This document shows, piece by piece, positions 254 to 20,458 of a stretch of 23,176 bases of DNA. Where the stretch lies: the NCBI GenBank assembly GCA_016748015.1, contig JAAOMT010000218.1:14811-37986 (forward strand). The letters run 5' to 3'. The stretch comes from Geosiphon pyriformis uo1 (Eukaryota > Fungi > Glomeromycota). Position 1 is the stretch's first letter. Each line of letters opens with the position of its first letter. Position numbers and translations under genes: made by a program. The notes under the pieces are model-generated. The model saw only the letters and a list, made by a program, of their open reading frames with translations, did no database searches and was not told where the DNA came from.

Positions 254-299
254 GTTTTTATATATTTTTTTGGTTATTCAATTTTATGTGTTTGGTTTA

Positions 300-303: not shown

Positions 304-845
304 TGTTACAGGTGACTAGTTCTGGTGTTGGATTAGATAACAAACCCATAACTTGGTGCTCAAATCTAGTTGTAGTTGATAATAATCTGAAGATTTGTGT
401 CTGAAAGGTTTGTATCCAAAGAGTTTGGTTGAGTTCTTTGTATAATGGACAGAGATTCAATGGTAATAGTTTTATCTGTAGCTTTCCGAAACCACAGTTT
501 TGTCAATTTCTTTCTTAGCTTGATGGCTGGTATTCCTCCTGGTAAGCTATTCTCAATCAAGTGTTCTATCCTTATTTCTAGGTCTTTTACCAGTCACATT
601 TATTCTGACGTCAGTACTCCGCGTGTTAATCCTCAATAGAGTTAGTAAACAACAATAAAATCAAGGCAAGAAATAAAGAAAAAAAAAAAAAATAAAGAAA
701 GAAAAGAAATAAGCCAAGACAATTTGCAAGTTAGTATTCCATTAATAGCCATGATCAAAAGCTATTGTTCCAATGTGGTTAAGTATCAATTACTATCAAC
801 ATGAAGTGTTGATAATGACAGCAGATTTGAGATAACAAACAGTTA

Positions 846-851
846 TTTATT
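846..851 (-). terminator. Putative polyadenylation signal AATAAA (also 10061..10066, 18755..18760)
   Basis: Conserved in all three LTRs ~70 nt downstream of the TATA motif, although its flanks diverge in LTR B. Confidence 0.45.
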
Positions 852-922
852 TGTGATTTGGAAAGTTGTCTAGATGAAATTTAAACTGAGAGGTCTGTTT
901 TTTTAGCTTCTAATCCTACTGC

Positions 923-930
923 TATATATA
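923..930 (-). promoter_or_regulatory. Putative LTR TATA box (TATATATA; also 10136..10143, 18832..18839)
   Basis: Conserved in all three LTRs, ~230-250 nt from the LTR 5' end, downstream of the repeat array. Confidence 0.6.
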
Positions 931-944
931 CATAATTGAGATTT

Positions 945-1102
945 CTCAATTCCTCAATTCTTCACAACAGAAATTCTGGGATTTCTGAATTCCTGCAATT
1001 CCTTTGAGAGGAATCCTGGAATTCTGGAATTTTGCGATTTCTTGTGAGAATTCTGTAATTCCTGGAATCCTGCAATTCCTCTAAGAGAAATCTTGAAATT
1101 CC
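945..1102. repeat. U3 array of degenerate 9-10-bp units (GGAATCCTG / CAATTCCTG); also ~10165..10318 and ~18850..18992
   Basis: Directly visible in all three LTRs, between the CCAAT and TATA motifs. Confidence 0.8.
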
Positions 1103-1121
1103 ACATTTACTATGTCTATAT

Positions 1122-1130
1122 CTGATTGGC
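1122..1130 (-). promoter_or_regulatory. Putative CCAAT box (GCCAATCAG)
   Basis: Plus-strand CTGATTGG is conserved in all three LTRs (1122, 10338, 19013). Confidence 0.55.
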
Positions 1131-1180
1131 TAATCTCTACTAACTAATAATACTATATTTCTTATATTCTATGAGTAACA

Positions 1181-1195
1181 TTATTCCCTCTTTTT
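1181..1195 (-). promoter_or_regulatory. Polypurine tract (plus-strand primer)
   Basis: Minus strand reads AAAAAGAGGGAATAA immediately before the 3' LTR start TGTTAC. Confidence 0.88.
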
Positions 1196-1853
1196 AATAT
1201 TGAGCTTCATCAAAATCTAATTCCTTTAATTCCTCTTCTTGAATTATTTCTTGAACTTCTTTTTCGAGTATTACTTGTGTTATTTTAGTTTGTAGTTCTT
1301 CAAATTGGGCATTGATTATTTTTCCCAATTGATTACTTATAATTGTATCCATTGCTGTATTGAGTAAGATTTCTGGTCAGTCTTGAAATCCCATATATAG
1401 CTGGTAAATAGCTTGAACTTGTGTGGTTAGATTGTTCTTTCCCACAAATTGTTCCAGTTGTCTCAGTATTGTTGTGTCAAATAACCATTTTGTTTTGTCA
1501 GTGTACAAATTCTGAATATTTACATGTTGTCCCAAGTGAAAATGACAATAGTTTTTTGGAAATTGTTGCATCTACCAAGTCCAAATTTCTCTGATAAGTT
1601 CTTAGTATAATCCAACTATTGGTTGTTCTTTTATAACCAATTTTATCTTGGTCATAATCTTGTCAACAACATTTCCAAGTCTTTTCTGTGCTTTGTTTTG
1701 TGGTATTTTTGCCGTATTTTTGTAACAAATGATTTGTTGATTGATTGTAATTTCCATCTCCTGGTGTTAGATTAATTGAAAAATTTGTTGGGCTAGTGAA
1801 TAGATATTGTCCATAATTTCTATTTTTCTGATCTCTTCTGTCACGTCGACCAT
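1194..1853 (-). pseudogene. ORF3 of copy B: ~219-codon gene of unknown function downstream of integrase
   Basis: ATG at 1853 to TAA at 1194..1196 is 660 nt in one frame, including track ORF 1377..1571. The four internal stops (TAA, TAA, TAG, TGA) are each one C>T from CAA/CAG/CGA. Gap-free homologue at 1..253. Confidence 0.75.
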
Positions 1854-1876
1854 GTTCTTATATATTCTTTTGTCAA

Positions 1877-3259
1877 TCAATTGGATGTGTTGTTGTCAAT
1901 AATAATGATTGGTTCCAGATCTCGTGAAATCTCATCTGGTTGGACTAGTATTTTCTGTACTTCTAATTGTGAAATATTACTGGTAGATGATAATGCTATA
2001 TAGTGATATGGTTTCAGTCAATCTTTATGTGCTGCTTTGGTCAAGATTTTGTTATTTAATCTTAATTTGTAAGCTCCATTTCTTAGAATTTCTTCTATGT
2101 AAAATAGTCCATCCCATTTGAAATCAAATTTTCCATTCTATTGTTTTTCCACTTTGGTACGATATAGTAGTACTTTGTCTCCAATCTTGAATTCAACTGG
2201 TTTATCTGGTAGTTGGTTATTATGTCTTTTTTTTTGTTTCTTTTGTGATCTTTGTATGTTATCAGCTGATCTTTGTTATTTGTTTTCTAATGTTTCCATT
2301 AAGTCATATGTTCTTCTCAACAATGTGTTTTTGAAATTCTTTTCTGTTATTGATTCAGTTGGATATGTGCTGACTTCTATTTCCACTGGTAGTGTTGCTG
2401 TTCTATCATATATTAATTCAAATGGTGTTGCTTGTGTAGTATCTTGCTTCATTGTCCAATAAGCAAATAGTACTGATGATATCAACAAATCCCAATCATT
2501 CTGGTTTTCTTGGCTGAGCTTAGCTATTGCTTCACACAATATTCTGTTGAATCTTTTGATTAATCCATTGGTTTGTGGATAGTATGGTAATAATAGTGGT
2601 CTCTTAATTCCGAATCTTTGGCTCAATTCTGTTAATGTTCTGTTCACAAAATAAGTTCCTTGGTCTGATAATAATTCCTTTGGACATCTGTGTTGACAAA
2701 TTAAATCTTGATGAACGAATTTGGCAACAGATTCTGCATCCGCTCTTTGAATTGCTTTTACCTCTGGCCATTTAGTGAAATAGTTCATGGCTACTGCTAT
2801 GTACCTGTTTCTTCTGCTGGTGATTGTTAATGGTCTGACTAAATCAATTCTAATATGGTCAAATGATTGTCCCACTTTGATTGGTCTTAATGATTCACTG
2901 GGTTTTGTACCTCCTCTTTACTGACAAACATCACAATTTTGAACATATTAGATAATGTCTGAATACATTGATGGCCAATAGTATCTTTTTTTGGTTCTTT
3001 CCATGGTTGCTTCTTTGTGAAAGTGTCCTGCTGTTGGATTTGAGTACATGTTGAATAATATTGTCTCTTTTTTTGGCTCTGTAATTACTCTGGTTGGTTG
3101 CTCTAGATCTCTTCTATTTTTCTAATAAAGTATATTTTGGTGAGTGATAAAATATTTTGATTGTTGTTTAATACTTTTTTGTTTTATTTGAGATAAATTC
3201 TCCTTGAACTGTTGAGTGTTTATATAATGTTGCAGTTGTTGATATTTTTGTATGTTCAT
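1877..3259 (-). pseudogene. Integrase, copy B (separate ORF, 460 codons, premature stops)
   Basis: Starts MNIQKYQQL; has the GHF...YYWP...CDVC Zn-binding region, the IDLV / LLSDQG / PQTNGL rve core, and a WDG(P)F-type C-terminal module; TGA at 1877..1879. No chromodomain seen. Confidence 0.92.
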
Positions 3260-3321
3260 CTTTTGTTATATTTTTCATTGGTATTGTTCTGGTTTTGTTA
3301 TATTTTTGGGTTGAAATGTTC

Positions 3322-4600
3322 TTAAATTTGTCTTATTTGTGACAAATTATCAGCATTTCTGTTGTCTTTTCCTTTTTTATAATGTATAGTATAATTATAT
3401 AGTGTGAGTGCTATTTTCCATCTTAACTGTCTTCCATCTCCAAATTCTTGTTTTTGAAGTGATGTTAATCCTTTGTAATCTGTGTATACTTCAAACTTCT
3501 GGCTCAAGTATTTTTTTCATTTCATAACTGCCCAATAGATTGCTAAATGTTCTAGTTCTGGTGTTCCATAGTTCTTTTCAGCTGGTGTTAAACCTCTGCT
3601 GGCATATGCTATTAGATGTTTTCTGTCATCTGGTTCTTTCTAAGATAGTACCACTCCCAATGCTTGGCTGGATGCATTGATGGTGATGATGAATGATTTG
3701 CTATAATCTAGATAGATCAGTACTGGAGCTTGAATGAGCTTTCTTTTCAGAATATCAAAAGCTTCTTGTTGACTTTCTGTCTATTCATATTTTGTATTTT
3801 TGGTTTGTAGTTGGTTGAGTGGCTGTGCTATTTTGGAAAAGTTCTTGATAAAACATCAATAGTAGCTGGCAAATTCTAAAAATAATTTCAGTTTTGTCAT
3901 ATTGGTCAGCACTGGAAAGTTCTTTACTATCTCTATTTTCTTTGGATCCGTTTTAATGTCATCTTTGCTGACTATGTGTTCCAAAAATTTTAGTTCTGTC
4001 TTGTGAAAAAACACTTTGTTGCATTTAACTTTAGTCCTGCTCTTTTTAGTCTTTCAAATACTTGTTGAAGATGATGAAGATAATTATCAAATGTTTTTGA
4101 GAATACATTGGTGTCGTTCAAGTATACAACTACTGATTTCCACAATAAGCCAGTATAAATGATTTTCATTAGCCATTGGAAAGTTGCTGGGGCATTGGTT
4201 AAGCCAAATGACATTACTTCAAATTCGAAATTTCTTTCCCTTATGGTGAATGCCATTTTCTCTTTGTCAGCTGGATTCATGGTTACTTGTCAGTAACCAC
4301 TATCCAGGTCTAATGTTGAAAACCATTTGTTTCCACCAAAAGTGGATTTTCCTATTCTTTTTCCGGACGAGTACCACTGGTGATAACCATGGGCTTATTG
4401 ATGGCTGAATTAGTCCGTTATTAAGCATTTGGTTTATCTTTTGACAAATAATCTTGTGGCTAGCTGGTGGTACTCTGTATGCTCTTTGTTTAATTGGCAT
4501 TATATCTTCAGTCTTGATGCTGGATGATGTCAGTTCAGCCAAACTTGTTTTCGCTGGCAAAGATGTCATTGAAATTGTTGAGCAACATCTTAAGTTGCAT
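3322..4600 (-). pseudogene. Reverse transcriptase-RNase H, copy B
   Basis: PIKQRAYRVP, SPW.SPVVLVRKK, FGLTNAPATFQ, YLND (from YLDD), YTDYKGL, NADNLS. Has an ~83-bp deletion near 4340 relative to copy A. Confidence 0.93.
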
Positions 4601-5065
4601 ACGTTAAAGTGGATCTAAGTTTCCCATGTTTATTTGTTCCAATTGTTCTGGTTGGAGCAAATAACATTTGTTTTGTCCATATATTATTATTTGTGATGTG
4701 ATATTGACATATCCACAAAGCTATGGAAAGTCCAAAATGGTGCTTGGTGATTGATCTTTTATTTCAGTGCTTAAGTATCTAATGGTGATTCCAGCTGGTA
4801 TTATTATGACATTTCTGGTGTTATTGTAGATGGGAATTTTGATGTGGCTGTAATCTTTGGCTGGTATATGGAAATTGATAAGTCCAATCTCTCCTGATTT
4901 ACAAAGGATTGGTTCTGCTTCAAAAATCTGATTCTGTTCTTTTACCTCCCACTTTATCTCTATCATGTACTGGCCATATGGTGGAATAGAAATTGCTTGA
5001 CCTGTTGAGATAATTTCTCCTTGGTCAACAATTTCTTCTTCTGCCATATTGACTGGTACATCTAT

Positions 5066-5461
5066 TCTACCTGTTGATTCGAATCCCTGTATTTCTTTTA
5101 CTGTTATTCCTAATTCCTCCCTTTTTCCTACTAATACTAACTGAGCTACTCTAACCAGAGGCAGGAATATTGCCTGTGCTATTTTTTCATTGGGCTCTAT
5201 TATATAGGCTTTTTCTGAGTCATTTTGTAGCATAGCAATGATATTTCCTACATATCCCACGTCAATTATTCCTCTTCTTATATTAATCTCTCTTTTCACT
5301 AAACTACTCTTAAATGCTAATTGAACCATTGTTGTTGCCAGAATTTCCAGTGCTATTTTTAAATCAAGACAGATATGTGAATGTAGTTCCAATTTGATGG
5401 CATCTTTTCCTGGATACCTCAAATCAAATCCAGCATCAGTATTATGTACGTGTTCTGGCAT
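5066..5461 (-). pseudogene. dUTPase domain, copy B
   Basis: Motifs DAGFDL, KSSL, GIIDVGYVG, EKIAQAIF, QGFESTG. Confidence 0.92.
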
Positions 5462-6699
5462 GATACCTTTGTTATTATCACTGAACTATTTTAGTTCCAA
5501 TTCTCTGGTCAGGTCAGGGATTGCAATATATTGTTCATATTTTAAAATTATTGTCATTGTTATCGCTATTTTGAACAGGGCTGAAACTGGTGTTTTTGTC
5601 ATCATTATTATCAGAGTTTGAATCATAATTAAAAGTCGATTCCAATTCTGATGCACAGCTGCTAATTGGTTTCTCTTCCTCTGGAATTGTGTAGATCATG
5701 CATGGTGGTGGATTGTAGATGAGGTCACACTCATTGCAATACTGAAAGTCACATGGGATTAAGCAATGTTGACACAATCGAGTGTTCAACTGCTCCAAAC
5801 ATTGCTCTTGTTCTTTCCTAGTAGGTGCCAAATGCTGGTAATGTTCATAAAATTCTTTGGGGTCATCCTCAATGTTGCCAAAAATGTCAACAATTTGAAC
5901 ATATTTGGGTTCAGAAAGTGATAGAAGATTATTTTTTATTTCTAGTAGTTTGCTGGTTGTCACACTTTCTGCTTTTGCATACATCATTCTTCATAGTTCA
6001 TCTTTGTCATGGGGATATCCATCTAATTGTTGCAACGCTCATTTTCAGATGTCATTGATTGGTGTTCCTTTGCTTACCCAATTGTTTATTAGTATGGTGT
6101 ACTGACATGTTTTGTCACATGTTCCTCCATGCCCAGGAATATCACTCCATATTCCTTTATCTGGTAGAATAGTTTCACATACGAGACATGGTTGGTTATC
6201 CCACTTTCCTTGTTGTTTTGGTCATCCAAAGCACTCTATGATGCATGGGCGGCAGTAAAATCTTGTGGCTGTGGAGTATTCTTCATTATCGCCATAGCAT
6301 ATGCCCATTGACAACAATTTCTTGCCGTAATTGATGCATTCCAATTTTGGTTGACAATAATTGGTTGGTGGTGATAAAATGTACACATCTGAATTATAAG
6401 TACTACTGGTGAGAGTGGTTCTTTCTTTTTTCTTCTTTCCCTTTCCTTTATCAGTTTCTTCTCACTCCCAGTTGGCTGGTTCATCTTGGTCGTTATCAGT
6501 TTTCCAGTTTTGGTCAGTTTTCCAGGTAAGTTCTTTGTTTTTCTTACCTTTTCCCTTATCATCCCAAGAAAATATTGGTGGTAGCTTGTTGTGGTCTTCA
6601 TTAGCCCATGAGACTTGGTAGACTTCCCAGATCAGTTTTCTTGTTTCTTTCTCAAACTCAATGAGTGGTTGGGCGTTGCTTGGCTTAAAGTGGCTACAA

Positions 6700-7100
6700 G
6701 TGGCTGGTGTTTAAGTATGCTGACCACCAAAAGTCAATTGTAGTTCTTGAGTGGTCCAATCAAGGGTAGCATGGGTTTTCGACAACCAATTGTTGCCTAC
6801 CAAAGCCTGGTATTGTGTGGCTTCCATCACAAAGACCTTGATGGGTACCATGATGCCATTAATTTCAATAGGTAGATTGTTTATTTTGCCTATTGGAGTT
6901 TTGATTGCTCCATCAGCTGTGATGATCCTTGCACTGGCAGCTCGGTCAACTCAGCGACCTAATTGATCCATGAGTTGCCTTGTTATGATGCTGCCAGCTG
7001 ATTCACTATTCAAGATCAGTTTGATGGTGTGGCCATCAATTTTGGCATTCATATACATGATGGTAATTGGTTTTTCTTCCAGGGCTGCTCCACTGAATAA
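6700..7100 (-). pseudogene. Aspartic protease domain, copy B
   Basis: AKIDGHTIKLILNSESAGSIIT (degenerate LILDSGS), followed by IITADGA.KTPIG and a downstream LVGNNWL. Confidence 0.85.
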
Positions 7101-7439
7101 TGGAATTTCGATCGTTTCTTTCAAGTCGAAAGGAAAGATGACCACAAACAATTTGTCATTGGTAACAGTTGCTGGTAGAATGTTGTTGGCAAGTGCTTGT
7201 TATTGATTGAATCCTGAATTGTTGGTAGTGGTGTCTTCTGGGGTAACCAAGAAACTTAAATAGTTCTGAGAATTCGGGTTTTAGGTGGCACTGGTACCTG
7301 AATTTTGAGAACACAATTCTGATGGTAAGTTGAAAGAACTGGAGATCAGTTGATAGACAACTATCGCTGATCTCCAGTTTTGTGTGATTCTAAGTCTGGG
7401 GTGGTTTGATGTCATATTAACTGAATTTTGGGGTGGTGT

Positions 7440-7580
7440 CTGAATTGATTGGGGTTGATAGATTATTTGTGGCTGCAGTTGATATATTATGGGTGGCTGT
7501 GGTTAATATATTGCTGGTGGCTGTGGTTGATAAACTAGAGTCTGATATACTGGTGCTGGGTAAATTGGCTGCTGTGTTAT
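7440..7580 (-). repeat. Coding tandem repeat, ~21-bp period, (I/V)YQPQPP, between the Gag knuckle and protease (also ~16140..16250)
   Basis: Gag frame reads ...VYQPQPPAIY*PQPPIIYQLQPQIIYQPQ... Confidence 0.7.
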
Positions 7581-7673
7581 TGGCAGGTAAGTGTTTTGAT
7601 ATTGTTCCTAATTTTGTTGATATCTTGGAGTTTGAAATTGGCAATTGGGGTTTCTATATTGATTTCTCAATTG

Positions 7674-8471
7674 CTAGTTGTTATAAGTGTTGCAGTTTGC
7701 TCTGATGTGCTCTTGTTTACCACAGTTGTGGCAGACATGCATCTCTGGCTGCCACTGCTGATTGGCCAATGTTGAGAGATGTGCTTGATTTTGGAAACAA
7801 TTGTAGTTTCCTGAATTGCTGCATCGTTTAGGTGGTTGATAAATTGTGTGATTGTCAGTTAAGTATCCTTCTAATTTCTGATTAATTGAATTACTGAATT
7901 GTTTCAATTTGGAGTCCAATTCAGATGATCTGTTCATCACTAGATTAATGGCTTGGGCATGATTGGCCTTAGACTTAGCTGATTCGAAATCTCTGGCACA
8001 TATGACTGCATTTTGAAGAGTGCCTAAATGCAATGGGCATACATGTTGCAAGATGCTGCTGCGCAGGCCATGGATAAACTGGTTAAGGATCTGTGGCACT
8101 GTGAAATAGTTGGTGTCAATTGCCTGGATCTGACATAAATTTCTATGGAAGTGTCCCAGATAAGTGGTGACTGCTTCAGTTTCTCCTTGCTTCATGGTGG
8201 TGAATGTATTGACTAGGCAGTTGATACTGTTATTGTTGCTAAAGTATCTTAAAAATTCTACTTTAAAGGCATTGAAGTCTTGTGGTTTATTAATTAAGCT
8301 CTGATACCATGAATCAGCAGTATCTTTAAGAAAATAGAGAATGGCTTGCATTGCTTGGATGTCATTCCATCTGTTGGCTGTGATGGCTTTTTCCATATCA
8401 TTCAGCCATACTTGAGCATCATCCTCTTTGCCAGTAAAATTATCCAGTTTTGCGATTGGTATGTAGGCCAT
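7674..8471 (-). pseudogene. gag: Gag core (retrotransposon capsid plus CCHC knuckle), copy B
   Basis: KLDNFTG...WL; MKQGETEAVTTYL..F (major-homology-like); FIHGLR; CHNCGKQEHIRANC. Confidence 0.9.
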
Positions 8472-9456
8472 TGGATTTAAGTTGGGTGGTTGTGATGGCT
8501 ATTGAAGCAGTTGTTGATTTTGGTGAGGTGGTAGTTGAAGTGGCTGCTATATGGATTCGGCTATTGGATCAATTAGTGGTTGATTGATAACAATTACCAA
8601 AGGTAAGTTTGATTGATTAATTAGATCGGAGTTTTGATTATTCTGAGTTGGTGGTGGCTGAATATTCGGAGTTTCAACTTCCAAATTTACTGAATTTAAA
8701 TTTTGCTGGTTCTGAAGATTCGGGGTTTCAAATTCTGGGTTTTCAGTGATCAGGTTCTGGTAAGTGAATTCTTGATTCTTAGTTTTTTCTTCTTTTTTTT
8801 TCTGATTCCATTATCTCCCACGGATCAGAGATTCCAAAATCTGGTAGAGATGGCAGTAATCAAATTTCTGATGGCATTGGTGATCACAATTTAAATCCCT
8901 CAAAATATTCGCCATATGGTCCTAATAACTCTGCTTTCTTTTGTTTACTTTGGAATGGAAATCATCCAAATGTTGATGTCACATTTGGTGTGAACGTGCC
9001 TGTAGATAAAATATTGATAGTGCTTCTGGTTGTGTAATGATATGATGAATATGGTGGGAATTCAATTCTTTGTTTCTTCCAGGTTGGTAGTTGTATCTCT
9101 TTAGGCATTACTGCTGGTGTTTGTAACCTTCCTTTGCCTTTATTTGTATAGGTGATAGGAAATTGTTGTTGAGTGTACCTTTCAATAGTTTGATTGATTT
9201 CTCTGATTATTGGTGTGAAACTATAGTTCCTTGGTAAGTTAGTGTGTTGGAATAATTCTGTGTAAAAGTTTTCTCTTTCTGCTTTAATGTTAACTGTCCC
9301 TCCTAAGCATTCAGTGATTTTGTTGTTGACATAAAAGTTGAAGGCTGATTTGGCTGAGTAATGATTACTGTTTAATCCTAATTGTTGGTTGTATTGTTGA
9401 AACAAGAATTTTGTGAATCCTAAATGGTTTGCTCCTATATTTTCTGATTCTGCCAC
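8472..9456 (-). pseudogene. N-terminal extension of ORF1, copy B (unknown domain plus Pro/Gln/Asn-rich linker)
   Basis: ORF 8962..9456 is homologous to 17581..18153. In copy A this region is in frame with Gag. Confidence 0.75.
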
Positions 9457-9498
9457 TTTTGGTTTTTTCTTGTTGGTGCTAGTTCTCTGTAGGATTAT

Positions 9499-9516
9499 AC
9501 TTCACAGGAAGCACCA
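9499..9516 (-). promoter_or_regulatory. Primer-binding site of copy B
   Basis: LTR end TGTAACA, 2-nt spacer TT, then TGGTGCTTCCTGTGAAGT (TGG is complementary to tRNA CCA). Confidence 0.85.
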
Positions 9517-9518
9517 AA

Positions 9519-10396
9519 TGTTACAGGTGAGTCTTTGGGGTGTCAAGTGAATAACAAACCATAACTTGGTGCTCAAAGTGATTAGTAACAATGATAATCT
9601 AAAGGTATTTTATCTGAAGGTTTTTCAATTGAGTTTTTTGTATAATGGACAGAGATTCACTGGTAACAGTTTATTAGTAGTTTTCTGAAACCATAGTTTT
9701 GTCGATGGCTTGCTCAGCTTGATAGTTGATAATTCTTCTTGTATGATATCCTCTGTAAGTGTATACTAGTGCTGTTTCCTGATGTTAGTTCCTCCATAAG
9801 TTTTCCAAGAGTAAGTATTGTTTAAGCAAATTTATTCCTCCATAAGTCTTCCAAAAGTAAATTCTTTAATCAAGTTAGTAGACAACAAGAAAATAAAGAA
9901 AAGATAAAAGAAAAGATAAAAAATAAGCCAAGGCAATTTACAAGTTAGTATTTCATCAATAGCCATGATCAAGAGCTATTGTTCCAGTATGGTTAAGTAT
10001 CAGTTTCTATTAACATAAAGTGTTGATAGTGAAAAATGAATTTGATATAACAAATAATTATTTATTGAAGATTGTGATAACTAAGCTAAGGATTCTTTGT
10101 GTCAATTCTGTCCTTTCTGCTTTTAATGCTACTGTTATATATACATATTTGAGATTCCTTAATTCCTCAATTTCTTGCGACATGAATCCTGGAATTCCTG
10201 GAATCCTGTGATTTCTGATGAGAGGAATCCTAGAATTTTGGAATCCTGCAATTTCTTGTCAAAGAATTCTGAAATTCTTTGAATCCTGCAATTCCTCTAA
10301 GAAAAATTTTGAAATTCCACATTTACTATGTCTACATCTGATTGGCTAATATTTACTGATTAATAATACTATATTTCCTATATTCTATAAGTAACA
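9519..10396 (-). repeat. 5' LTR of copy B (878 bp)
   Basis: TGTTAC...GTAACA termini; homologous to but diverged from the other two LTRs; followed on the minus strand by a PBS. Confidence 0.93.
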
Positions 10397-10433
10397 TCAT
10401 GTTTACCATGTCTTTATATATTTTTTTAATGGA

Positions 10434-11816
10434 TTAATTTAATGTGTTGTTGTTAATGATGATGATTAGTTCCAGATCTTGTGAAATCTCTTTTGGTTGG
10501 ACTATTATCTTCTGTACTCCTAATTGTGGAATATTACTGGTAGATGGTAGTGTAATGTTGTGGTATAGTTTCAGTCAATCTCCATGTGCTGCTTTGGTTA
10601 AGATTTTGTTATCCAGTTTTAATTTGTAAGCTCTATTCCCTAGAATTTTTTTTATGTGAAATGGTCCATCCTATTTGGAGTCAAATTTTCTACTCTATTG
10701 TTTTTCCACTTTGGTATGATATAAGAATACTTTGTCTCCAATCTTGAATTCAACTGATTTGTTTGGTAGTTGATTATTATGTCTTTCTTTTTGTTTTTCT
10801 TGTGACTTTTGTATGTTATCAGCTGTTCTTTTTCATTTGTTTTCCAATGTTTCCATTAAGTCATATGTTTTTCTTAACAATGTTTCTTGAAAATTCTCTT
10901 CTGTTATTGATTCAGTTGAATATGTGTTAACCTCTATCTCAACTGGTAATATTGCTGTTCTATCGTATATCAATTCAAATGGTGTTGCTTGTGTGGTGTC
11001 TTGCTTCATTGTCCAATAAGCAAATAATACTAATGGTATGGACAAATCTCATTTGTCCTGGTTTTCTTGGCTGAGTTTTGCTATTGCTTTACACAATGTT
11101 CTATTAAATCTTTCAACTAATTCATTGGTTTGTGGATGATATAATGATAATAGTGGTCTCTTAATTTCGAATCTTTGGCTTAGTTCTGCTAATGTTCTAT
11201 TTACAAAATGGGTTTTTTGGTCTGATAATAGTTCTTTTGGACATCTATGTCAACAAATCAGATCTTGATGTATAAATTCAGCAATGGATTCTGCATCTGC
11301 TTTTTGAATTGCTTTGGCCTCTGGCCATTTAGTAAGATAGTCCATAGCTACTGCAATATATCTGTTGCCTCTGCTAGTAATTGTCAATAATCCGACTAAA
11401 TTGATTCCAATATGGTCAAATGGTTGTCCCTCTTTGATTGGTCTCAATGGTTTGCTGGGTTTTGTTTCTCTTCTTCTTTGACAAGCATCACAATTTTGCA
11501 CATATTGAATGATGTCTGAATACATTGATGGCCAATAGTATCTCTTTCTAGTTCTTTCTATGGTTGCTTCTTTATGAAAATGTTCTGCCGTTGGATCTGA
11601 GTACATGTTAAACAGTATTGTCTTCTTTTCTGGTTCTGTAATTACTCTGGTTGGTTGATCTGCATCTTTTCTATTTTTTCGATAAAGTATATTTTGGTGA
11701 GTAATAAAATATTTGAATTGTTGTTTGATCCTCTTTTGTTTCGGTTGAGATAATTTCTCCTTGAACTGTTAAGTATCTATATAATGTTGAAGTTGTTAAT
11801 ATTTTTGTGTGTTCAT
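10434..11816 (-). pseudogene. Integrase, copy A (separate ORF, 460 codons, premature stops)
   Basis: ATG 11816 to TAA 10434..10436 is 1383 nt, the same length as copy B. Track ORFs 11250..11606 and 10833..11045 lie in this frame. Confidence 0.92.
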
Positions 11817-11877
11817 CTTTTGTTATATTTTTGTGAGTATTGTTTTGGTTTTGTTATATTTTTGGTTTGAAATGTTC

Positions 11878-14800
11878 TTAAATATGTCTCATTCGTGACA
11901 AACCATCAGTATTTCTATTGTCTTTTCCTTTTTTATAATGTATGGTATAAGTATATGTCGAAAAAGCCATTTTCTATCTTGACTGTTTTCCATCTCCAAA
12001 TTCTTGTTTTTGGAGTGATGTCAATTCTTTGTAATCTGTGTATACCTCAAACTTTTGGCTCAAGTATTTTTTCCATTTCATAACTGCCTAATAGATTGCT
12101 AAATGTTCTAATTTTGGTGTTCCATAGTTCTTTTCGGCTGGTGTTAAACCTCGGCTGGCGTATGCAACTGGATGTTCTTTTCCATTTGGTCCTCTCTAAG
12201 ATAGTACTGTTCTCAATGCTTGATCTGATGCATCAGTGGTGATAATGAATGATTTATTATAATCTGGATAGATCAATACTAGAGCTTGAATAAGCTTTCT
12301 TCTTAAGATGTCAAATGCTTCTTGCTGGGTTTCAGTCCATTCATACTTTGCATTTTTGGTTTGAAGATTATTGAGTGGTTGTGCTATCTTTAAAAAGTTC
12401 TTTATGAAGTGTCTATAATAGCTTGCAAATTCTAAGAATGATTTTAGCTCAATTATGTTGGTTGGTATTAGAAAGTTCTTTACTATCTTTATTTTCTTCA
12501 GATTTGTTTTTATGCCGTCTTTGCTAACTATGTGTTCCAAGAATTTTAGTTCTGTTTTGCCAAAAAAACACTTTGTTGTATTCAATTTTAATCTTGCTTG
12601 TTGTAATCTTTTAAACACTTGTTGGAGATAACATAGATAATTATCGAATGTTTTTGAGAACACATTGGTGTTATCCAAGTATACAACTACTGATTTCCAC
12701 AATAAGCTGGTATACACAATTTCCATTAGCTGTTGAAATGTAGCTGGAGCATTGGTTAAGCCGAATGGCATAACTTCAAACTCAAAGTTTCCCTCTCTTG
12801 TGGTGAATGCTGTTTTTTTTTTGTTGGCTGAATTCATGGCTACTTGCCAGTAACCACTATCCAAGTCTAATGTTAAGAACCATTTGTTTCCACTGAAAGT
12901 GTCGAATAATTTTTGTATCTGTGGAGTTAGATAGCTGTTTCTACGAGTTACACCATTGAGTTTCCTGTAGTCTACACAAAATCAGATTTTTTCATTCTTC
13001 TTACAGATGAGTACTACTGATGATGACCATGGGCTCATTGATGGCTGAATTAATCTATTGTCAAGCATTTGGTTGATCTCTTGATGGATGATTTTATGGC
13101 TAGCTGGTAGTACCTTATATGCTCACTGTTTGATTGGCATTGTATCTTCAGTCTTGATCTGATGCTGGATAATATCAGTTCTGCCAAATTCGTTTTTACT
13201 GGTGAAAATGTCATTGAAATTATTGAGTAACATCTTTAGTTGCATCTGTTGAAGTAGGTCTAGATTTCCCATGTTCATTTGTTCCAATTGTTCTGGCTGT
13301 AACAGATAACATTTATTTTGTCTGTAGATGGTTTGTGATGTAATGTCCACATATCCACAAAGCTGTAGAAAATTTGAAATGCTGCTTGGTGCTTAATCTT
13401 CAATTTCTGTGGTTAAATATCCGAGAGTGGTTCCTTTCAGTATCTCTACAACATTTTCAGTGTTGTTGTAGATGAGAATTTTGATATAATTATGGCTCTT
13501 GGCTGGTATGTGTAGATTGATAAGTCCAATTTCTCCTGATTCACAAAGAGTTGCTTCTGCTTCAAAAATCTGTTCTTGCTTCTTCTTTCTCCTTTCTATT
13601 GCTAACATGTATCAGCTATATGATAGAATGGAAATTGTTTGACCAGTTGAGATAATTTCTCCTTGGCCAATAATTTCTTTCTCTACCATATTGACTGGTA
13701 CATCTATTCTATCTATTGATCCAAATCCCTGTATTCCTCTTACTGTTATCCCTAATTTTTTCCTATTTCTTATTAAAACTAACTAAGTGATTTTCACCAG
13801 AGGCAGGAATATTGCCTGTGCTATCTTTTCATTTGGCTCTATAACATAGGCCTTTTCTGAGTTATTTTATAGCATAACAATAATATTTCCTACATATCCT
13901 GCATCAATTATTCTTCTTTTGATGTTTATTTCCTTTTTTGCTAAACTACTCTTAGATGCTAATTGAACCATTGTTGTTGCTAGAATTTCCAGTACTATTT
14001 TCAGATCGATGCAAGTGTGCAAATGAGGTTCCAATTTGATGGCATTCTTTCCTGGGTATCTCAGATCAAATTCTGCATTAGTATCATGTGCACGTTTTGG
14101 CATGATACTTTCATCATTATCACTGAACCATTTCAGTTCTTGCTCTTTGGTGAAGTCAGGGAGTGCAATATATTGTTCATAGTTTGAGTTTGAATCTGAG
14201 TTGAAATCATTGTCATAGCTATATTGAATGGAGCTAAAACCCTTATTTTTGTTATTGTCATTGTCAAAATTTAAATCAGGGTTGGAACTTGATTCTAATT
14301 CTGATGTGCAGCTGTTGATTGGTTTTTCTTCTTTAGGAATTGTGTAGATCATGCGTGGTGGTGAATTGTAGATGAGGTCACAATCATCACAGAATTGGAA
14401 GTCACATAGAATTAAACAGTAATCACATAATTGGGTGTTGATTTCTTCCAAGTGTTGCTCTTGTTCTTCTTTCGTGGGTGCTAGATTTTGATAGTGTTCA
14501 TGGAATTCTTTTGGGCTGTTTTTTATGTCAATAAAGACATCTGGGTTGAGAACCAAAACAATGTCTATTGGTTCTAGAGGGTTATTCTTAATCTCCAGAA
14601 TTTCATTGGGTAAAACACCTTCTACTTTGGCATTGATTATTCACCAGATCTCGTTCTTGTCATGTGGATAGCCGTCTAGGCAGAATATAGCTCGGTGCCA
14701 TGCTGCTATAATGGGTGTATTATAACTTACCCAGTTGCTGATGAGGATCATATATTGACATGAAGTGTTGCACATTCCTCCTCAACCAGGAATGTCATTC

Positions 14801-17800
14801 CACATTCCTTCATCGAGTAATTGTTTGCCGTAAGTAAGACATGGTTTGTTGTTCCACTTGCCTTGTCTTTTTAGGTAGCCATATCATTCTCTATGGCAGG
14901 GCTTGCAATAGTAATGAGTTCGCATCTAGTAGTTTTTGTCTGACGCTATCCAAGCTCCCATTAAGGACAGTTTTTTCCCACAGTCCTTGCATTTGAGATA
15001 TATATATGATGGCTTTTTTATTGGTTCACATGAGTATTTCTTTTCCCAGTCACTAGTCATTTTTTCTGCAGTGGTGGTTTCTTCAGGTATGTTTTTTTCC
15101 CTTCTTTTCCCTTTTTTCTTGTTCTTTTCTTCCCAATCTAGAATTGGTAACATCTCACTTTGGTTGTTGTTGGTTCAAGTGTCGATGGTGGCTTCCCAGA
15201 TAGGTTTTTCTCTTTGTTTCTTCTTTCTGTTGTTGTTGTTGTCCTAGGCAAGTATTGGTGGCAGTTCGTTGTAGTTGACATTGGCCCACAAGACTTGGTA
15301 CACTTCTCAGGTGGGTTTTGTTTTTTCTTCCTTGAATTTGATAAGTGGTGTTGATGGCATGGTGATGGGCTTGAAGTGGCTACACGTGGCTGGTATTTAT
15401 GTGTGTTGACCATTCTGGCTAAGCTGGAGCTCTTGGGTGTTTCAATCTAAGGTCACATTGGTTTTGGACAGCCAGTCGTTTCCAACGAGTGCTTGGTATT
15501 GAGTGGCTTCCATAACGAGTACTTTGATTGGTACTATGATGCCATTGACTTCTATGGGGAAATCATCAATCTCTCTAATGGGTGTTTTGGTCGCTCCATC
15601 AGCTATAATAATCCTGGCACTAACAGCACAATCAACTCAGTAACCTAATTGATCCATAAGTTGTCTTGTGATAATGCTGCCAGCTGATCCATTATCTAGA
15701 ATCAGTTTGATAGAGTGACCATCAACTTTTGCATCAGTGTACATCATGGTGATGGATTTTTCCTCAAGTGCTACTCTACTGAACAAAGGTGGATTGATGG
15801 TTTCCTCCAATTCAAAAGGAAAGATGGCTGCGAGAGATTTGTTTTTGGTAATCATTGCTGATGGAATATTGTTGATGAGTGTTGTTTGGAGTGGGTTGGA
15901 TTCTGAGTTGTTGGTGGTGGCATCTTCTGGGGTGACCAAGAGACTTAAATAGTTCTGAGAATTTAGGTTTTGGGTGGAACCAATACTCAGATTCCGCTGT
16001 CGAGAGCTTGATAGTTGGTAAGAGGAGCTGGAGATCAGTTGATGAACAACCATTGCCGATCTCCAGTTTTGAGTGATTCTAGGTCTTGGGTTTCCTGATG
16101 TCATTTGAGTGGGGTTTTGGAGTAGTGTTTGAATTGGTTGTTGGGGCTAATAAATTATTTGGGGCTGTGGCTGATAAATTACTGGTGGCTGCGATTGATA
16201 AATTGGAGGTTGATATACTGGCAGTTGATAGATTGGTTGCTGCATCATTGGCAGGTAAGTGGTTTGATATTGGTCTTGATTTGGGTAGTTATTCTGAGTC
16301 TGAAATCTGCAATTGGAGTTTCAATATTGATTTCCCAATCATGGATTGTTGCTATAAAATTGACAGCTGGCTCTAATGTGATTTTGTTTACTACAATTGT
16401 GGCAAACATGCATTTCTGGCTGCCACAGCTGATTGGGTAATGATGATAACAATGATGTTAATGGATGCGGCTGATTTTGGAAATGATTTATGTTTCCTGA
16501 ATTATTGTGTTGTTGTGGTGATTGATAGATTGCACAATTGTCAGCTAAGTATCCCTCTAGTTTTTGATTGATTGTATTACTAAATTGTTTCAGTTTGGAA
16601 TCCAAGTCAAATGATCCGTTCATTACTAAATTTACAGCTTGGGCATGATTGGCTTCTAGCTCGGCTGCTTCAAAATCTCTGGCATGAATAATGGCAGTTG
16701 GGAGGTCAATTGGATGCATTGGATGTACTCACTGAAAGATGCTACTGTGCAATTCTTTGATGAACTGGTTTAAGATCTGTGGCACTATAAAGTAATCAGC
16801 TTGGATTGCCTAAATTTGGCATAAATTTTTATAGAAGCATCCTAAGTAAGTGGTGACTGCTTTTGTGTTCCCTTGTTTGATAGTAGTGAATGTGTTGGTC
16901 AAGTGATTGATACTATTGTTATTACTAAAGTATCTCAAGAATTCTGTTTTGAACTCATTAAAAGTTTGTGATTTGGCAGCTAGGCTTTGATACTATGAGT
17001 CAGCAGTATCTTTGAGAAAATAGAGGATTGCTTGAAGGGCTTTACCGCTGTTCTATCCATTGGCTACTATGGCTTTTTCAACGTTGTTGAGCCATATTTG
17101 GGCATCATCCTCTTTGCTGGTAAAATTGTCAAGTTTTGTGATTGGTACGTAGGCCATTAGATTTAAGTTAAGTTGTTGTGGTAGTAGTTGAAGTGGTTGT
17201 TGTTGCACGAGTTGTTGGAGTAATAGTTGAAGTGACGGTTGTATGGGTTCAGCTATTGGATTAATTGGTGATTGATTGATAACAATTACTGGAGATAAGT
17301 TTTGTTAATTTATTAAATTGGAGTTTCAATTATCCTGAGTTGGTAGTGTCCAAATGTTCGGAGTTTTGATTTCCAGATTTTCTGGGTTTAGATTTTGCTG
17401 GGTTTGAAAATTCGGGATTTCAAATTCCAGGTTTTCAGTGATTGGGTTCTGGTAAGTGAATTCTTGATCTTCAGTTTCTTTTTCTTCTTTTTTTTCTTCT
17501 GATTCTGTTACTTCCTATGGATCAGAAATTCTGAAATCTGGAGGAGGCAGTGGCAATCGGAGTTCTGATGGCATTAATGATCACGAGTTAAATTCTTCAA
17601 AATACATGCCATATGGTCTTAATAACTCTGCTTTCCTTTGTTTACTTTGGAATAAGAATTGTCCAAATACTGACATTGTGTTTGATGTGGCTGCGCCAGT
17701 AGATGTAATATTAATGGCACTTCCAGGTATATAGTGGTATGATGGATTAGTTGGAGACTCAACTCTTGTTTTCTTCCAAGTAGGTGGTTGTATTTTTTTG

Positions 17801-18153
17801 GGTGTTACTGCTGGTGTTTGCAGTTTTTTTTTGTCTTTGCTTGTGTAAGTAATGGGGTATCTTTGCTGTGTGTGGTGTTTAATTTCTTTGTTGATTTCCA
17901 TAATAATGGAGGCAAAATTGTGGTTTGTTGGCAGATTGGTATTTTGAATTAATTCATTGTAAAAGGCTTTTCTTGTTGATTTAATATTTACTAGTGTTCT
18001 TAATAGATAGGCAATTCTTTTATTGACATAGAAATTGAAAGCTGATTCCGCTAATATGTGGTTGTGATTTAATTCCAAATGTTGACAGTAGTGTTGAAAT
18101 AAGGATTTTGTGAATCCTAGATGGTTTGCTCTTATGTTTTCTGATTCTGCCAC
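11878..18153 (-). pseudogene. ORF1 polyprotein of copy A: N-extension-Gag-PR-Cys-rich-dUTPase-RT-RNase H in one frame (~2090 codons)
   Basis: Homologous track ORFs with first bases at 18153, 16719, 16104, 15153, 14556, 13608, 13350 and 12864, plus the stop at 11878..11880, all share one frame. Motifs: CHNCSKQNHIRASC, LILDNGSAG, IIDAGYVG, MPFGLTNAPATFQ, YLDN, TTDAS. Confidence 0.92.
13710..14103 (-). pseudogene. dUTPase domain, copy A
   Basis: NAEFDL, ASKSSL, IIDAGYVG, EKIAQAIF, RGIQGFGS. Confidence 0.9.
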
Positions 18154-18192
18154 TTTTAAATTTGTGTTGGTGCTGGTTTTCTGTAGGATTAT

Positions 18193-18210
18193 ACCTTACA
18201 GGGAGCACCA
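18193..18210 (-). promoter_or_regulatory. Primer-binding site of copy A
   Basis: TGTAACA-TT-TGGTGCTCCCTGTAAGGT. Confidence 0.85.
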
Positions 18211-18212
18211 AA

Positions 18213-19068
18213 TGTTACAGGTGACTAATTCTGGTGTTGAATTAGATAACAAACCTGTAACTTAGTGTTCAAATCTAGTTGTAGTTGATAGTAATCTGAA
18301 GATTTGTGTCTGAAAGATTTGTATTCAAAGAGTTTGGTTGAGTTTTTTGTATAATGGACAGAGATTCAATGATAATAGTTTTATCCGTAGCTTCCCAAAA
18401 CCACAGTTTTATCAATTTCTTTCTCAGCTTAATGGCCAGTATTCCTCCTGGTAAGCTATTCTCAATTGAGTGTTCTATCCTTATTTCTGGGTCTTTTACC
18501 AGTCATGTTTATCCTGACGTCAGTACTTTGCACATTAATCCTCAATAGAATTAGTAAACAACAATAAAATCAAGGCAAAAAATAAAGAAAAGAAAATAAA
18601 ATAAAGAAAAAAAAGAAATAAGCCAAGGTGATTTACAAGTTAGTATTCCATTAATAGCCATGATCAAGAGCTATTGTTCTAGTATAGTTAAGTATCAATT
18701 ACTATTAACATGAAGTGTTGATAGTGGCAGTGGGTTTGAGATAACAAACAGTTATTTATTTGTGGTTTGGAAAGTTGTTTAGATAAAATCTAAACTGAAA
18801 GGTTTGTTTTTTTAGCTTCTAATCCTACTGCTATATATACATAATTGAGATTCCTTAATTCTTCAATTCTTTACAACAGGAATCCTGCAATTTCTTTGAG
18901 AGGAATTCTAAAATTCTGGAATCCTGCAATTTCTTGTAAGAATCCTGTAATTCCTGGAATCTTGTAATTCTTGAAAGAAATCCTGGAATTCCACATTTTA
19001 CTACGTCTACTTCTGATTGGTTAATAACTATGCTAATATATATATTCCCTATATTTCTATGAGTAACA
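18213..19068 (-). repeat. 5' LTR of copy A (856 bp)
   Basis: TGTTAC...GTAACA termini, adjacent PBS, and target duplication ATGA at 19069..19072. Confidence 0.93.
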
Positions 19069-19072
19069 ATGA
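19069..19072. repeat. Target-site duplication ATGA (right copy)
   Basis: Matches 300..303. Confidence 0.85.
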
Positions 19073-20428
19073 TTATAATTGGTTCTAAATCTTGCAGAAT
19101 CTCATCTGGTTTGACTAGTATTCTCTGTACTCTTAATTGTGGAATATTATTGGTGGATAACAATGCTATATGGTGATATTGTTTCAGTCGATTACTATGT
19201 GCTGCTTTGGTTAAGATTTTGTTGTTCAACTTTAATTTATAAGCTTCATTTTCAAGAATTTCTTCTATGTGAAATGGTCTGTCCCATTTGGGATCAAATT
19301 TTTCACTCCATTGTTTTTCTGTTTTAATATGATGCAGAAGTACTTTGTCTCCAATCTTGAATTCAACTGGTTTCTCTGGTAGTTGGTTATCATGTCTTTT
19401 TTTTTGTTTTTCTTGTGACTTTTGAATGTTATTAGCTGCTCTTCGCTATGTGTTTTCTAATGTCTCCATTAAGTCATATGTTCTTCTTAACAATGTTTTT
19501 AAAAAATTTTTTTCTGTTATTGGTTCTGTTGGATATGTCTTAATTTCTATCTCAATTGGTAATATTGTTATTCTACTGTATATTAATTTGAATGATGTTG
19601 CTTATGTAGTGTCTTGCTTTATTGTCTAATAAGCAAATAATACTGATAATATAATCAAATCTCATTCATCCTGGTTTTTTTGGCTGATTTTGGCAATAGC
19701 TTTACACAATATTCTGTTAAATTTTTCAACTAGTCCATTTGTTTGTGGATGGTATGGTGATAATAATGGGTTTTTTATTCCAAATCTTTGACTCAATTCT
19801 GTTAATGTTCTATTCACAAAGTGAGTTCCTTGATCCAATAACAATTCTTTTGGACATCTGTGTCAACAGATCAAGTCTTAATAAACAAATTCGGCAACAA
19901 ATTCTGCATCTGTTTTTTAAATGGCTTTTGCTTCTGGCCATTTTATGAGATAATTCATGGCTACTGCAATATATCTGTTGCCTCTGTTGGTGATTGTTAA
20001 TGGTCCAACTAAGTCAATTCTAATGTAATCAAATGGTTGTCCTACTTTGATTGGTTTCAATAGTTCACTGAGTTTTGTTCCTTCTTTTTTCTGACAAGCA
20101 TCACAATTTGAGCATATTAAATGATGTTTGGATATATTGATGGCCAATAGTATTTTTTTCTGGTTCTTTTCATTGTTGCTTTTTTATAAAAATGTCCTGC
20201 TGTTGAATTTGAGTACATGTTGAACAATATTGTCTCTTTCTCTGGTTTTGTGATTACTCTGATTGGTTGATTTGGATTCTTTTTGTTTTTCTGGTAAAGT
20301 ATATTTTGGTAATTAATAAAATATTTTAATTGTTGTTTTATGTTGTTTTGTTCTTTTTGAGATAATTTTTTCTTGAACAATTAGGTATTTATATAATATT
20401 AAAGTTGTTAATATTTTTGTATATTCAT
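19073..20428 (-). pseudogene. Integrase, copy C (interrupted ~5 codons before its stop by copy A)
   Basis: ATG 20428; TAGHF, YYWP, CDACQ, IDLVGP, DQG, TNGLVE; ends ...QDLEPIIII at the LTR. Confidence 0.9.
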
Positions 20429-20458
20429 GTTTTGTTATATTTTTGGGTTGAAATGTTT

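Follow-up and report, generated by a model that had tools for sequence, protein, structure and literature searches.

A separate integrase cistron in a fungal-type Ty3/gypsy clade and a shared A-rich leader ahead of the integrase and ORF3 start codons in nested elements of Geosiphon pyriformis

LTR retrotransposons normally cut their integrase (IN) from one Pol polyprotein, which also packages the enzyme. In foamy viruses, Pol has its own AUG and is not fused to Gag, and RT and IN are made together from a spliced mRNA. Within the Ty3/gypsy group (Metaviridae), Bao et al. 2010 described a set of integrases with a YPYY motif that includes Athila/Tat-related groups, Gypsy-1-I_RO and DGLT-A1, and linked it to the Ginger1 transposons (PMC2836005). 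As far as the available parts of the sources describe them, several systems translate a downstream cistron that starts at or shortly after the upstream stop codon, namely the non-LTR elements SART1 and LINE-1 and the RNA viruses CHV1, caliciviruses and influenza B; UAAUG coupling is found in SART1 and in the fungal virus CHV1, while LINE-1 manages a 63-nt spacer (PMC5972666, PMC2699510). In CHV1 the efficiency is below 5%, and a 31-nt insertion at the junction is detrimental (PMC2699510). In yeast, poly(A) tracts ahead of an AUG confer IRES-like activity that uses Pab1 (reviewed in PMC6720308). Literature searches returned no description of a separate IN ORF in LTR elements, though subscription papers, Repbase and supplements may hold one, and the available portions of PMC5751038 and PMC11952901 make no mention of one. 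According to the available portion of PMC11952901, LTR elements make up 41% of the Geosiphon genome, and the split layout described here is thus no rarity in this fungus.

The window analysed here is a stretch of 23,176 nucleotides from Geosiphon pyriformis (contig JAAOMT010000218.1, positions 14,811 to 37,986), and it consists of a nest of three decayed Ty3/gypsy LTR elements, A, B and C, all on the minus strand (Table 1). The unit LTR1-A-LTR2-B-LTR3 interrupts the IN tail of C and has a copy of the TCAT duplication on either side; ORF3 of C picks up again at position 253. The differences between LTR1 and LTR3 are mostly transitions (79 of 84), and the observed/expected CpG ratio is 0.18. Pfam domains in the window comprise gag, protease, dUTPase, RT, RNase H and integrase, and no tRNA genes were found there. 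As in the YPYY group of Ty3/gypsy elements, so far as the available text describes it, the order is Gag-PR-RT-RH-IN with Ty3-type domains, the direct LTRs have TG...CA ends, and a PBS-like TGG, a polypurine tract (PPT) and a short target-site duplication (TSD) are present; by eye, the IN N-terminus also has a Y..P..Y/F..Y pattern like the YPYY motif (PMC2836005). Unlike in that group, IN lies outside Pol, with its own ATG behind a stop codon, a third ORF follows IN in about ten loci, and in the window family a dUTPase lies between PR and RT. The usual single Pol polyprotein releasing IN is thus absent from the window elements.

Table 1. Features of the window and positions of the hairpin in related loci (hairpin positions are approximate).
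Feature	Position	Strand	Remarks
LTR3 (TGTTAC...GTAACA)	304..1180	-	90% identity to LTR1
Polypurine tract ahead of LTR3	1181..1193	-	
ORF3 of B, about 219 codons, 4 decay stops	1194..1853	-	no Pfam family; weak profile likeness to relatives' ORF3
ORF3 leader of B	1854..1869	-	last 16 nt of the 23-nt spacer from IN stop to ORF3 ATG (1854-1876)
IN cistron of B, decayed	1877..3259	-	own ATG 3257-3259; zinc-binding and rve domains; stop TGA 1877-1879
RNase H-IN spacer of B, 62 nt	3260..3321	-	motif copies 3292-3307 and 3260-3275; IN out of frame with RNase H
RNase H stop TAA of B	3322..3324	-	common to A, B and C
Internal region of B, decayed	3325..9518	-	PBS-like TGG 2 nt after LTR2, gag, protease, dUTPase, RT, RNase H
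LTR2	9519..10396	-	begins 10 nt past the ATG of A's ORF3, truncating A's ORF3
ORF3 leader of A	10410..10425	-	24-nt spacer 10410-10433; ATG 10407-10409
IN cistron of A, decayed	10434..11816	-	ATG 11814-11816
RNase H-IN spacer of A, 61 nt	11817..11877	-	motif copies 11848-11863 and 11817-11832
gag-protease-dUTPase-RT-RNase H of A	11878..18212	-	one frame, about 2110 codons, ends at TAA 11878-11880
LTR1, within IN tail of C	18213..19068	-	
TSD TCAT	19069..19072 (left), 300-303 (right)	-	
IN cistron of C	19069..20428	-	ATG 20426-20428; last codons and stop at 278-303
RNase H-IN spacer of C, 30 nt	20429..20458	-	one motif copy 20429-20444; IN in RNase H frame, behind two TAA
ORF3 leader of C	254..269	-	24-nt spacer 254-277; ATG 251-253; ORF3 leaves the window
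Hairpin, L002	4464-4500		
Hairpin, L005	586-623		
Hairpin, L010	491-528		
Hairpin, L011	186-222		
Hairpin, L012	176-213		
Hairpin, L017	9-45		
Hairpin, L024	20-57		
Hairpin, L027	493-529		
Hairpin, L085	162-198		
Hairpin variant, L006	25-60		

Several further features of the elements were observed. Both nested insertions lie within about 50 nt of an ORF3 start, and their sites, TCAT (19069-19072 and 300-303) and ATGA (10397-10400), are reverse complements of each other, which hints, from two events only, at a target preference or a self-insertion hotspot. The gag frame appears open into the LTR and over the PBS (18213-18520 and 9519-9800, minus strand), so that the start of ORF1 may lie within the 5' LTR; an intact gag ATG was not found. 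Between protease and dUTPase, Pol carries a long Cys/His-rich insert and an acidic stretch (14150-15250 and 5500-6600, minus strand), in place of which three related loci (L002, L016 and L084) have extensions of 270-600 aa after RNase H. In the U3 part of the LTRs (930-1100, 10150-10310 and 18840-19000, minus strand), repeated words resembling GCAGGATTCC and GGAATTCC lie ahead of a TATATATA box.

Several features are common to Ginger1 and the present elements, as far as the available text of PMC2836005 goes: a stand-alone gypsy-like IN of about 400 aa in which YPYY, zinc finger, DDE and GPY/F regions are present, TGT ends, and a 4-bp TSD. Unlike in Ginger1, however, IN lies here inside an LTR element, directly behind RT-RNase H (10/10 loci with RNase H in view), no Ulp1 or OTU domain is present, the TSD is TCAT rather than CCGG or CCGT, and the termini are direct LTRs rather than TIRs (PMC2836005). 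The upstream RT-RH, the direct LTRs and the TCAT TSD led to the rejection of the window elements as Ginger1 DNA transposons.

The original prediction, made from the window sequence, was that IN and ORF3 are downstream cistrons of a polycistronic RNA, and their separation is borne out: each has its own ATG, the RNase H stop is common to the three copies, and the IN start is kept across a large clade. The gag-to-RNase H frame of element A contains 32 stops, of which the last alone is common to A, B and C where all three overlap; four more, upstream of C's reach, are common to A and B and look like CpG decay. Owing to the common stop, every ribosome on ORF1 would end 30-62 nt ahead of the IN AUG. 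Furthermore, no one fixed frameshift or readthrough can account for IN, which in C follows two stops and in the other two copies is out of frame. The stop as a decay product (CAA to TAA) of a fused Pol was considered as well and rejected, since it is found in all three copies and also in intact relatives, and since A and B are out of frame. A makes up 57-71% of the spacers, which form no stable structure (MFE 0 to -1.6 kcal/mol), and an out-of-frame AUG is present inside the RNase H-IN spacer of B, with none in that of A. The arrangement is like that of foamy virus Pol in that an enzyme gene has its own AUG, and differs from it in that only IN is split off.

The closest relatives of the window IN (38-47% identity) are mostly proteins of 400-450 aa that start at the same Met. 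As the first search for relatives was length-limited, longer proteins and 50% representatives without a length filter were added, and a FastTree phylogeny was built from 349 IN sequences, namely those proteins covering at least 300 and those loci covering at least 200 profile positions. The window IN falls in a clade of 127 sequences (support 0.97) that comprises 88 stand-alone proteins, 36 loci and 3 fused proteins. Two of the three fused proteins (from Rhizophagus clarus and Cetraspora) were rejected as fusions, their gene models omitting the junction, while P0204 is a true in-frame fusion within the clade. Long fused matches from Rhizophagus and Cetraspora (P0200, P0201, P0206 and P0207) were discounted in general; they are without the end of RNase H and the start of IN, and look like gene models spliced across the junction. 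The named members of the clade are Glomeromycota, and viral contigs gave 3 weak IN matches only. Two contigs of this fungal-type clade, L084 and L085, sit in bacterial MAG records, most likely through binning contamination.

The IN N-terminal region is reached by 27 of the 36 clade loci, and 3 of these begin inside it, leaving 24 that could be scored. An ATG lies exactly at IN profile position 1 in 22 of the 24; the two exceptions are L024, which has a frameshift near the start, and L031, which is without an ATG at that position. An in-frame stop occurs no more than 23 codons upstream of IN in 24/24, and where RNase H is in view, all ten clade loci stop before or on the IN ATG, at distances from the end of the RNase H ORF of -8, -1, 30, 39, 62, 74, 89, 163, 308 and 365 nt. 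Of the loci outside the clade in which RNase H can be seen, most have one frame that continues into IN. The start context in the 22 loci is favourable, with a purine at -3 in 19 and a G at +4 in 20, and it is A-rich at -11, -10 and -4 to -1. The 50 nt upstream of the IN ATG hold 6 AUGs in these loci, against 15.9 expected (P 0.004 under a simple base-frequency model), and beyond 100 nt upstream there is no depletion.

The central element of the original prediction was that the same 16-nt leader precedes the ATG of both downstream cistrons. All six 19-mers are present on the minus strand at the positions and with the letters claimed, and AATATA stands at -13 to -8 in each; the leader at 251-269 indeed belongs to element C, as the IN tail and ORF3 of C flank the A-B insertion with its 4-bp TCAT duplication. 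These six are the only occurrences of AATATA-N7-ATG in the window (6 on the minus strand, 0 on the plus strand), for which 0.55 would be expected by chance, given 31 minus-strand AATATA and about 409 ATG. "Same" is slightly overstated, as 11-14 of 16 positions agree between IN and ORF3 leaders. Nevertheless, 0, 1 and 2 of 403 other minus-strand ATGs equal the three ORF3 leaders in their score against the IN leaders, and when each ORF3 leader is shuffled within its own letters, a likeness as great as that observed arises with P 0.0037, 0.0078 and 0.0127. Two shuffled leaders have a common in-register 6-mer with at least two non-A letters in 1.05% of trials. The likeness thus exceeds composition-matched chance at the level of about 1%, which is not overwhelming, as the three copies are homologous and amount to one comparison of two leader classes, picked post hoc.

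The duplication of the motif in the RNase H-IN spacers of A and B, also part of the prediction, is present. Between the duplicates there is 1 difference in the 16 positions of the motif half, against 6 in the 14 of the other half (Fisher P 0.025, presuming that the whole spacer was duplicated). Among copies of the ORF3 spacer, the last 16 nt vary solely by A/G, while the first 7-8 nt vary widely. The same letters occur in other copies: two Geosiphon gene models translate through the ORF3 leader as (K)KIYKDM and IYKD, and at least 14 contigs continue from the IN leader into the single-copy spacer form with its stop. When DNA contigs were compared with the window, no difference fell in the leaders or the RNase H stop among the best 40 of 511 differences, a sample that cannot prove conservation of the leader. 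Each LTR also starts with two AATATA words 9 nt apart, which resemble the leader core and have no ATG after them (1153-1172, 10370-10388 and 19041-19060, minus strand).

These data bear on whether the leader is a signal at all. IN and ORF3 could be separate cistrons and the 16-mer no more than the A-rich context usual at fungal start codons, or a remnant of some former duplication or template switch, so that the likeness would be unselected. The single post hoc comparison with P near 0.01 fits this explanation, as do the generally A-rich IN start contexts of the clade and the absence of the motif from relatives; moreover, the transition-dominated decay spares A and T letters, so that A-rich stretches look conserved. 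However, the AATATA-to-ATG register is exact in both leader classes and almost no other ATG scores as high, ORF3 copies vary only by A/G within the 16-mer while the preceding nucleotides vary widely, and the 16-mer is the unit preserved in the spacer duplication, if the whole spacer was duplicated. Unselected likeness is therefore judged quite unlikely.

The proposal of a dedicated cis-signal can be retained in so far as the leader likeness is above chance and the motif half was preserved, and it finds no support beyond this Geosiphon family. Outside its own family the motif was not seen, AATATA being found within 40 nt of the IN ATG in none of 22 related loci. Furthermore, in 8 related loci no more than 2-9 of 16 positions agree when the IN leader is compared with the ORF3 leader of its own element, and together these results imply that the leader is not needed clade-wide. 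By sequence comparison, the AATATA 16-mer is family-specific, and one junction type among several.

The other types are diverse. The RNase H-IN junction of L007 is TAATG, and in L015 the IN ATG begins 8 nt before the end of the stop; such overlap occurs in 2 of 10 related loci. The IN/ORF3 junction of L011 is ATGA. Whereas the restart AUG lies 23-62 nt from the upstream stop in the window, the distance in relatives ranges from -8 to 365 nt, and the long spacers contain AUGs (7 in the 365 nt of L003, 12 in the 727 nt of L016). In L007 and L013, pol is in another frame than gag. An in-frame TGA followed by CTA lies between protease and RT in three loci (L003:870-875, L015:1585-1590 and L016:3358-3363); UGA-CUA is a known readthrough context, which suggests programmed readthrough between PR and RT there.

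In a sister subgroup, the junction holds a different element. A 37-nt hairpin motif, located between the upstream stop and the IN AUG, ends 3-37 nt before that AUG in nine loci; L006 has a variant. The motif has 11 predicted pairs; all 99 cells in the nine loci are standard pairs, and 5 pairs show two-sided changes (19 cells), a value that 0 of 500 shuffles reach and that compares with 0-4 cells in slid controls; the structure was predicted from the same nine sequences on which it was tested, and nine is few. Single hairpin sequences are not stabler than shuffles (z -0.38 and 0.65), so the support is from covariation only. The loop, CANNGUGA, and a 5' bulge, GUGAAAGCNNAAG, are conserved. When 10 loci, among them 8 hairpin carriers, were searched with Rfam covariance models, there was no match at E up to 1. 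A search of 89 sources, including the window, with a model of the hairpin recovered the nine training loci and, weakly, L006 (E 0.024), and nothing else; at the window junctions there was no match, the best hit in the window (E 0.27) lying inside IN. Two pattern matches in viral contigs were discarded, as the hairpin model gave them no score. The carriers form one subclade (support 0.87), inside which L084 is without the hairpin. The conserved structure indicates that the RNase H-IN junction can hold a selected cis-element, and it thereby gives independent support for the kind of signal proposed, not for the 16-mer sequence itself.

ORF3 is a less widespread component. All 98 matches to the window ORF3 are from Geosiphon pyriformis, while about ten clade loci have an ORF3 of 143-270 aa after IN (L001, L002, L005, L009, L010, L011, L016, L018 and L084, besides the window at 1194-1853), and several others run from IN straight to the PPT-LTR. 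The Geosiphon ORF3 matches the family of its relatives weakly (hhalign E 0.002, probability 13%), and it has no Pfam family and no Atlas match. The model of a relative's ORF3 is all-helical and confident (pLDDT 88), and comparison with PDB, BFVD and VIA-align gave nothing clear (best Z 4.8). The protein is small and not env-like. As a required trans-activator it is unlikely, since in L003, L022, L025 and L026 IN is followed closely by the PPT-LTR. A gag-like ORF occurs after the 3' LTR in L002 and L084.

A feature of ORF3 bears on whether IN and ORF3 are instead expressed from their own capped RNAs, by splicing or from an internal promoter. A second Met ten codons on is kept in many Geosiphon copies. 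Transcription typically starts 25-30 nt after a TATA box, and this Met lies at a distance fitting a start site 25-30 nt after the TATATAA-like leader, so that the ORF3 leader could serve as the TATA box and translation begin at Met11. The original prediction that the motif is too close to the ATG for a TATA box therefore stands for IN and not strictly for ORF3. TATA-like runs also lie 40-125 nt ahead of ORF3 in L001, L002, L004 and L084, the depletion of upstream AUGs would fit any scanning mRNA, and possible splice signals are present: TAAC-AAAAG, at the end of the IN leaders of A and B, resembles a branch site with an acceptor, and the 3' arm of the hairpin reads GTGAY-NNN-YAG in 9 loci. However, ORF3 Met1 is conserved too, the IN leader makes a poor TATA box (TATAAC), and translation across the clade begins at IN residue 1, for which a start site farther downstream cannot serve. 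Splicing fares no better: the leader of C and the first duplicate end in AAAAC without AG, no YAG occurs in the AUG-free upstream stretch at 4 of 5 window junctions tested, L007, L014 and L015 have no AG at all in that stretch, and L006 keeps the hairpin loop with no YAG after it. Outside the hairpin subgroup, where YAG is present, a conserved 3' splice site before the start was not found. Subgenomic mRNAs are accordingly held to be improbable.

The elements thus have a three-cistron layout, a common RNase H stop and short unstructured spacers, and an IN start in good context that is clade-wide. The explanation preferred for them is termination-reinitiation on the full-length RNA, aided by the family-specific A-rich 16-nt leader, to which a probability of roughly 45% is given on the sequence data. 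IN and ORF3 would be separate genes behind the gag-to-RNase H gene on one long RNA, and ribosomes terminating upstream would re-initiate at the next AUG, with the leader as restart site. The leader would then be under selection, coupling to upstream termination would be the route, and IN would reach the cDNA or particle without being cut from a polyprotein. Re-initiation is favoured because ORF1 is without a frameshift here, both junctions consist of a stop, a short spacer and a start, and relatives have TAATG and ATGA. These overlapping junctions recall SART1 and CHV1, and the window spacers of 23-62 nt match that of LINE-1, as described in the available parts of PMC5972666 and PMC2699510. 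Unlike in those non-LTR elements and in CHV1, caliciviruses and influenza B, which are RNA viruses, the elements here are LTR elements and the same leader stands at two successive junctions.

Several points weigh against re-initiation. The A and B spacers are 61-62 nt long, which could be too far in view of the harm done in CHV1 by a 31-nt insertion, according to the available part of PMC2699510. Only 2 of 10 related RNase H-IN junctions overlap, the spacer of B has its out-of-frame AUG, and no TURBS-like word was found: besides A-rich words, no 5-mer is common to the 100 nt upstream of 12 loci without the hairpin. Relative to the TURBS-type systems, as the available sources describe them, coupling is a candidate only. 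The long, AUG-containing spacers of L003 and L016 would not be crossed by simple re-initiation, and where RT lies behind TGA-CTA (L003, L015 and L016) or pol is off the gag frame (L007 and L013), a coupled IN would be doubly rare.

The same features bear on internal entry, in which the A-rich leader, and the hairpin in the sister subgroup, would recruit ribosomes independently of upstream translation, like a Pab1-type IRES. The spacers are A-rich and unstructured, and the yeast poly(A)-tract IRES offers a precedent, as, like it, the leader is a short unstructured A-rich sequence before a downstream AUG in a fungus (PMC6720308, from the part of the review available). The hairpin lies between the upstream stop and the IN AUG, unlike TURBS elements, which lie upstream of the stop, and both the AUG-containing spacers and the position of RT behind TGA-CTA fit entry independent of ORF1. 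Unlike the yeast tracts, however, the leader is a candidate from sequence with a spaced AATATA motif and no run of at least 12 A, the constant 7 nt between AATATA and ATG speak for positioning and not for a diffuse tract, and the stop-start overlaps in L007, L015 and L011 point to coupling. Internal entry thus appears unlikely, and re-initiation remains the preferred explanation.

A wider interpretation is possible, if doubtful. The clade could be a fungal gypsy lineage with a polycistronic RNA and interchangeable start modules: stop-start overlaps, the A-rich 16-nt leader at both Geosiphon junctions, and, before the IN AUG of the sister subgroup, an undescribed RNA with a covarying stem and its conserved loop and bulge. 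Hairpin and leader would then be dedicated internal-initiation elements, the first for an LTR retrotransposon's IN, and the IN cistron might be the missing step from gypsy to Ginger1.

A large clade that makes IN from its own AUG needs other means both to translate IN and to deliver it. The leader at two successive junctions and the compact covarying hairpin are small candidate re-initiation or internal-entry elements of fungi, with a possible use in polycistronic expression in these organisms. Finally, a stand-alone YPYY-type IN within an LTR element bears on the relationship between Ginger1 and gypsy integrases, which the available text of PMC2836005 leaves open.
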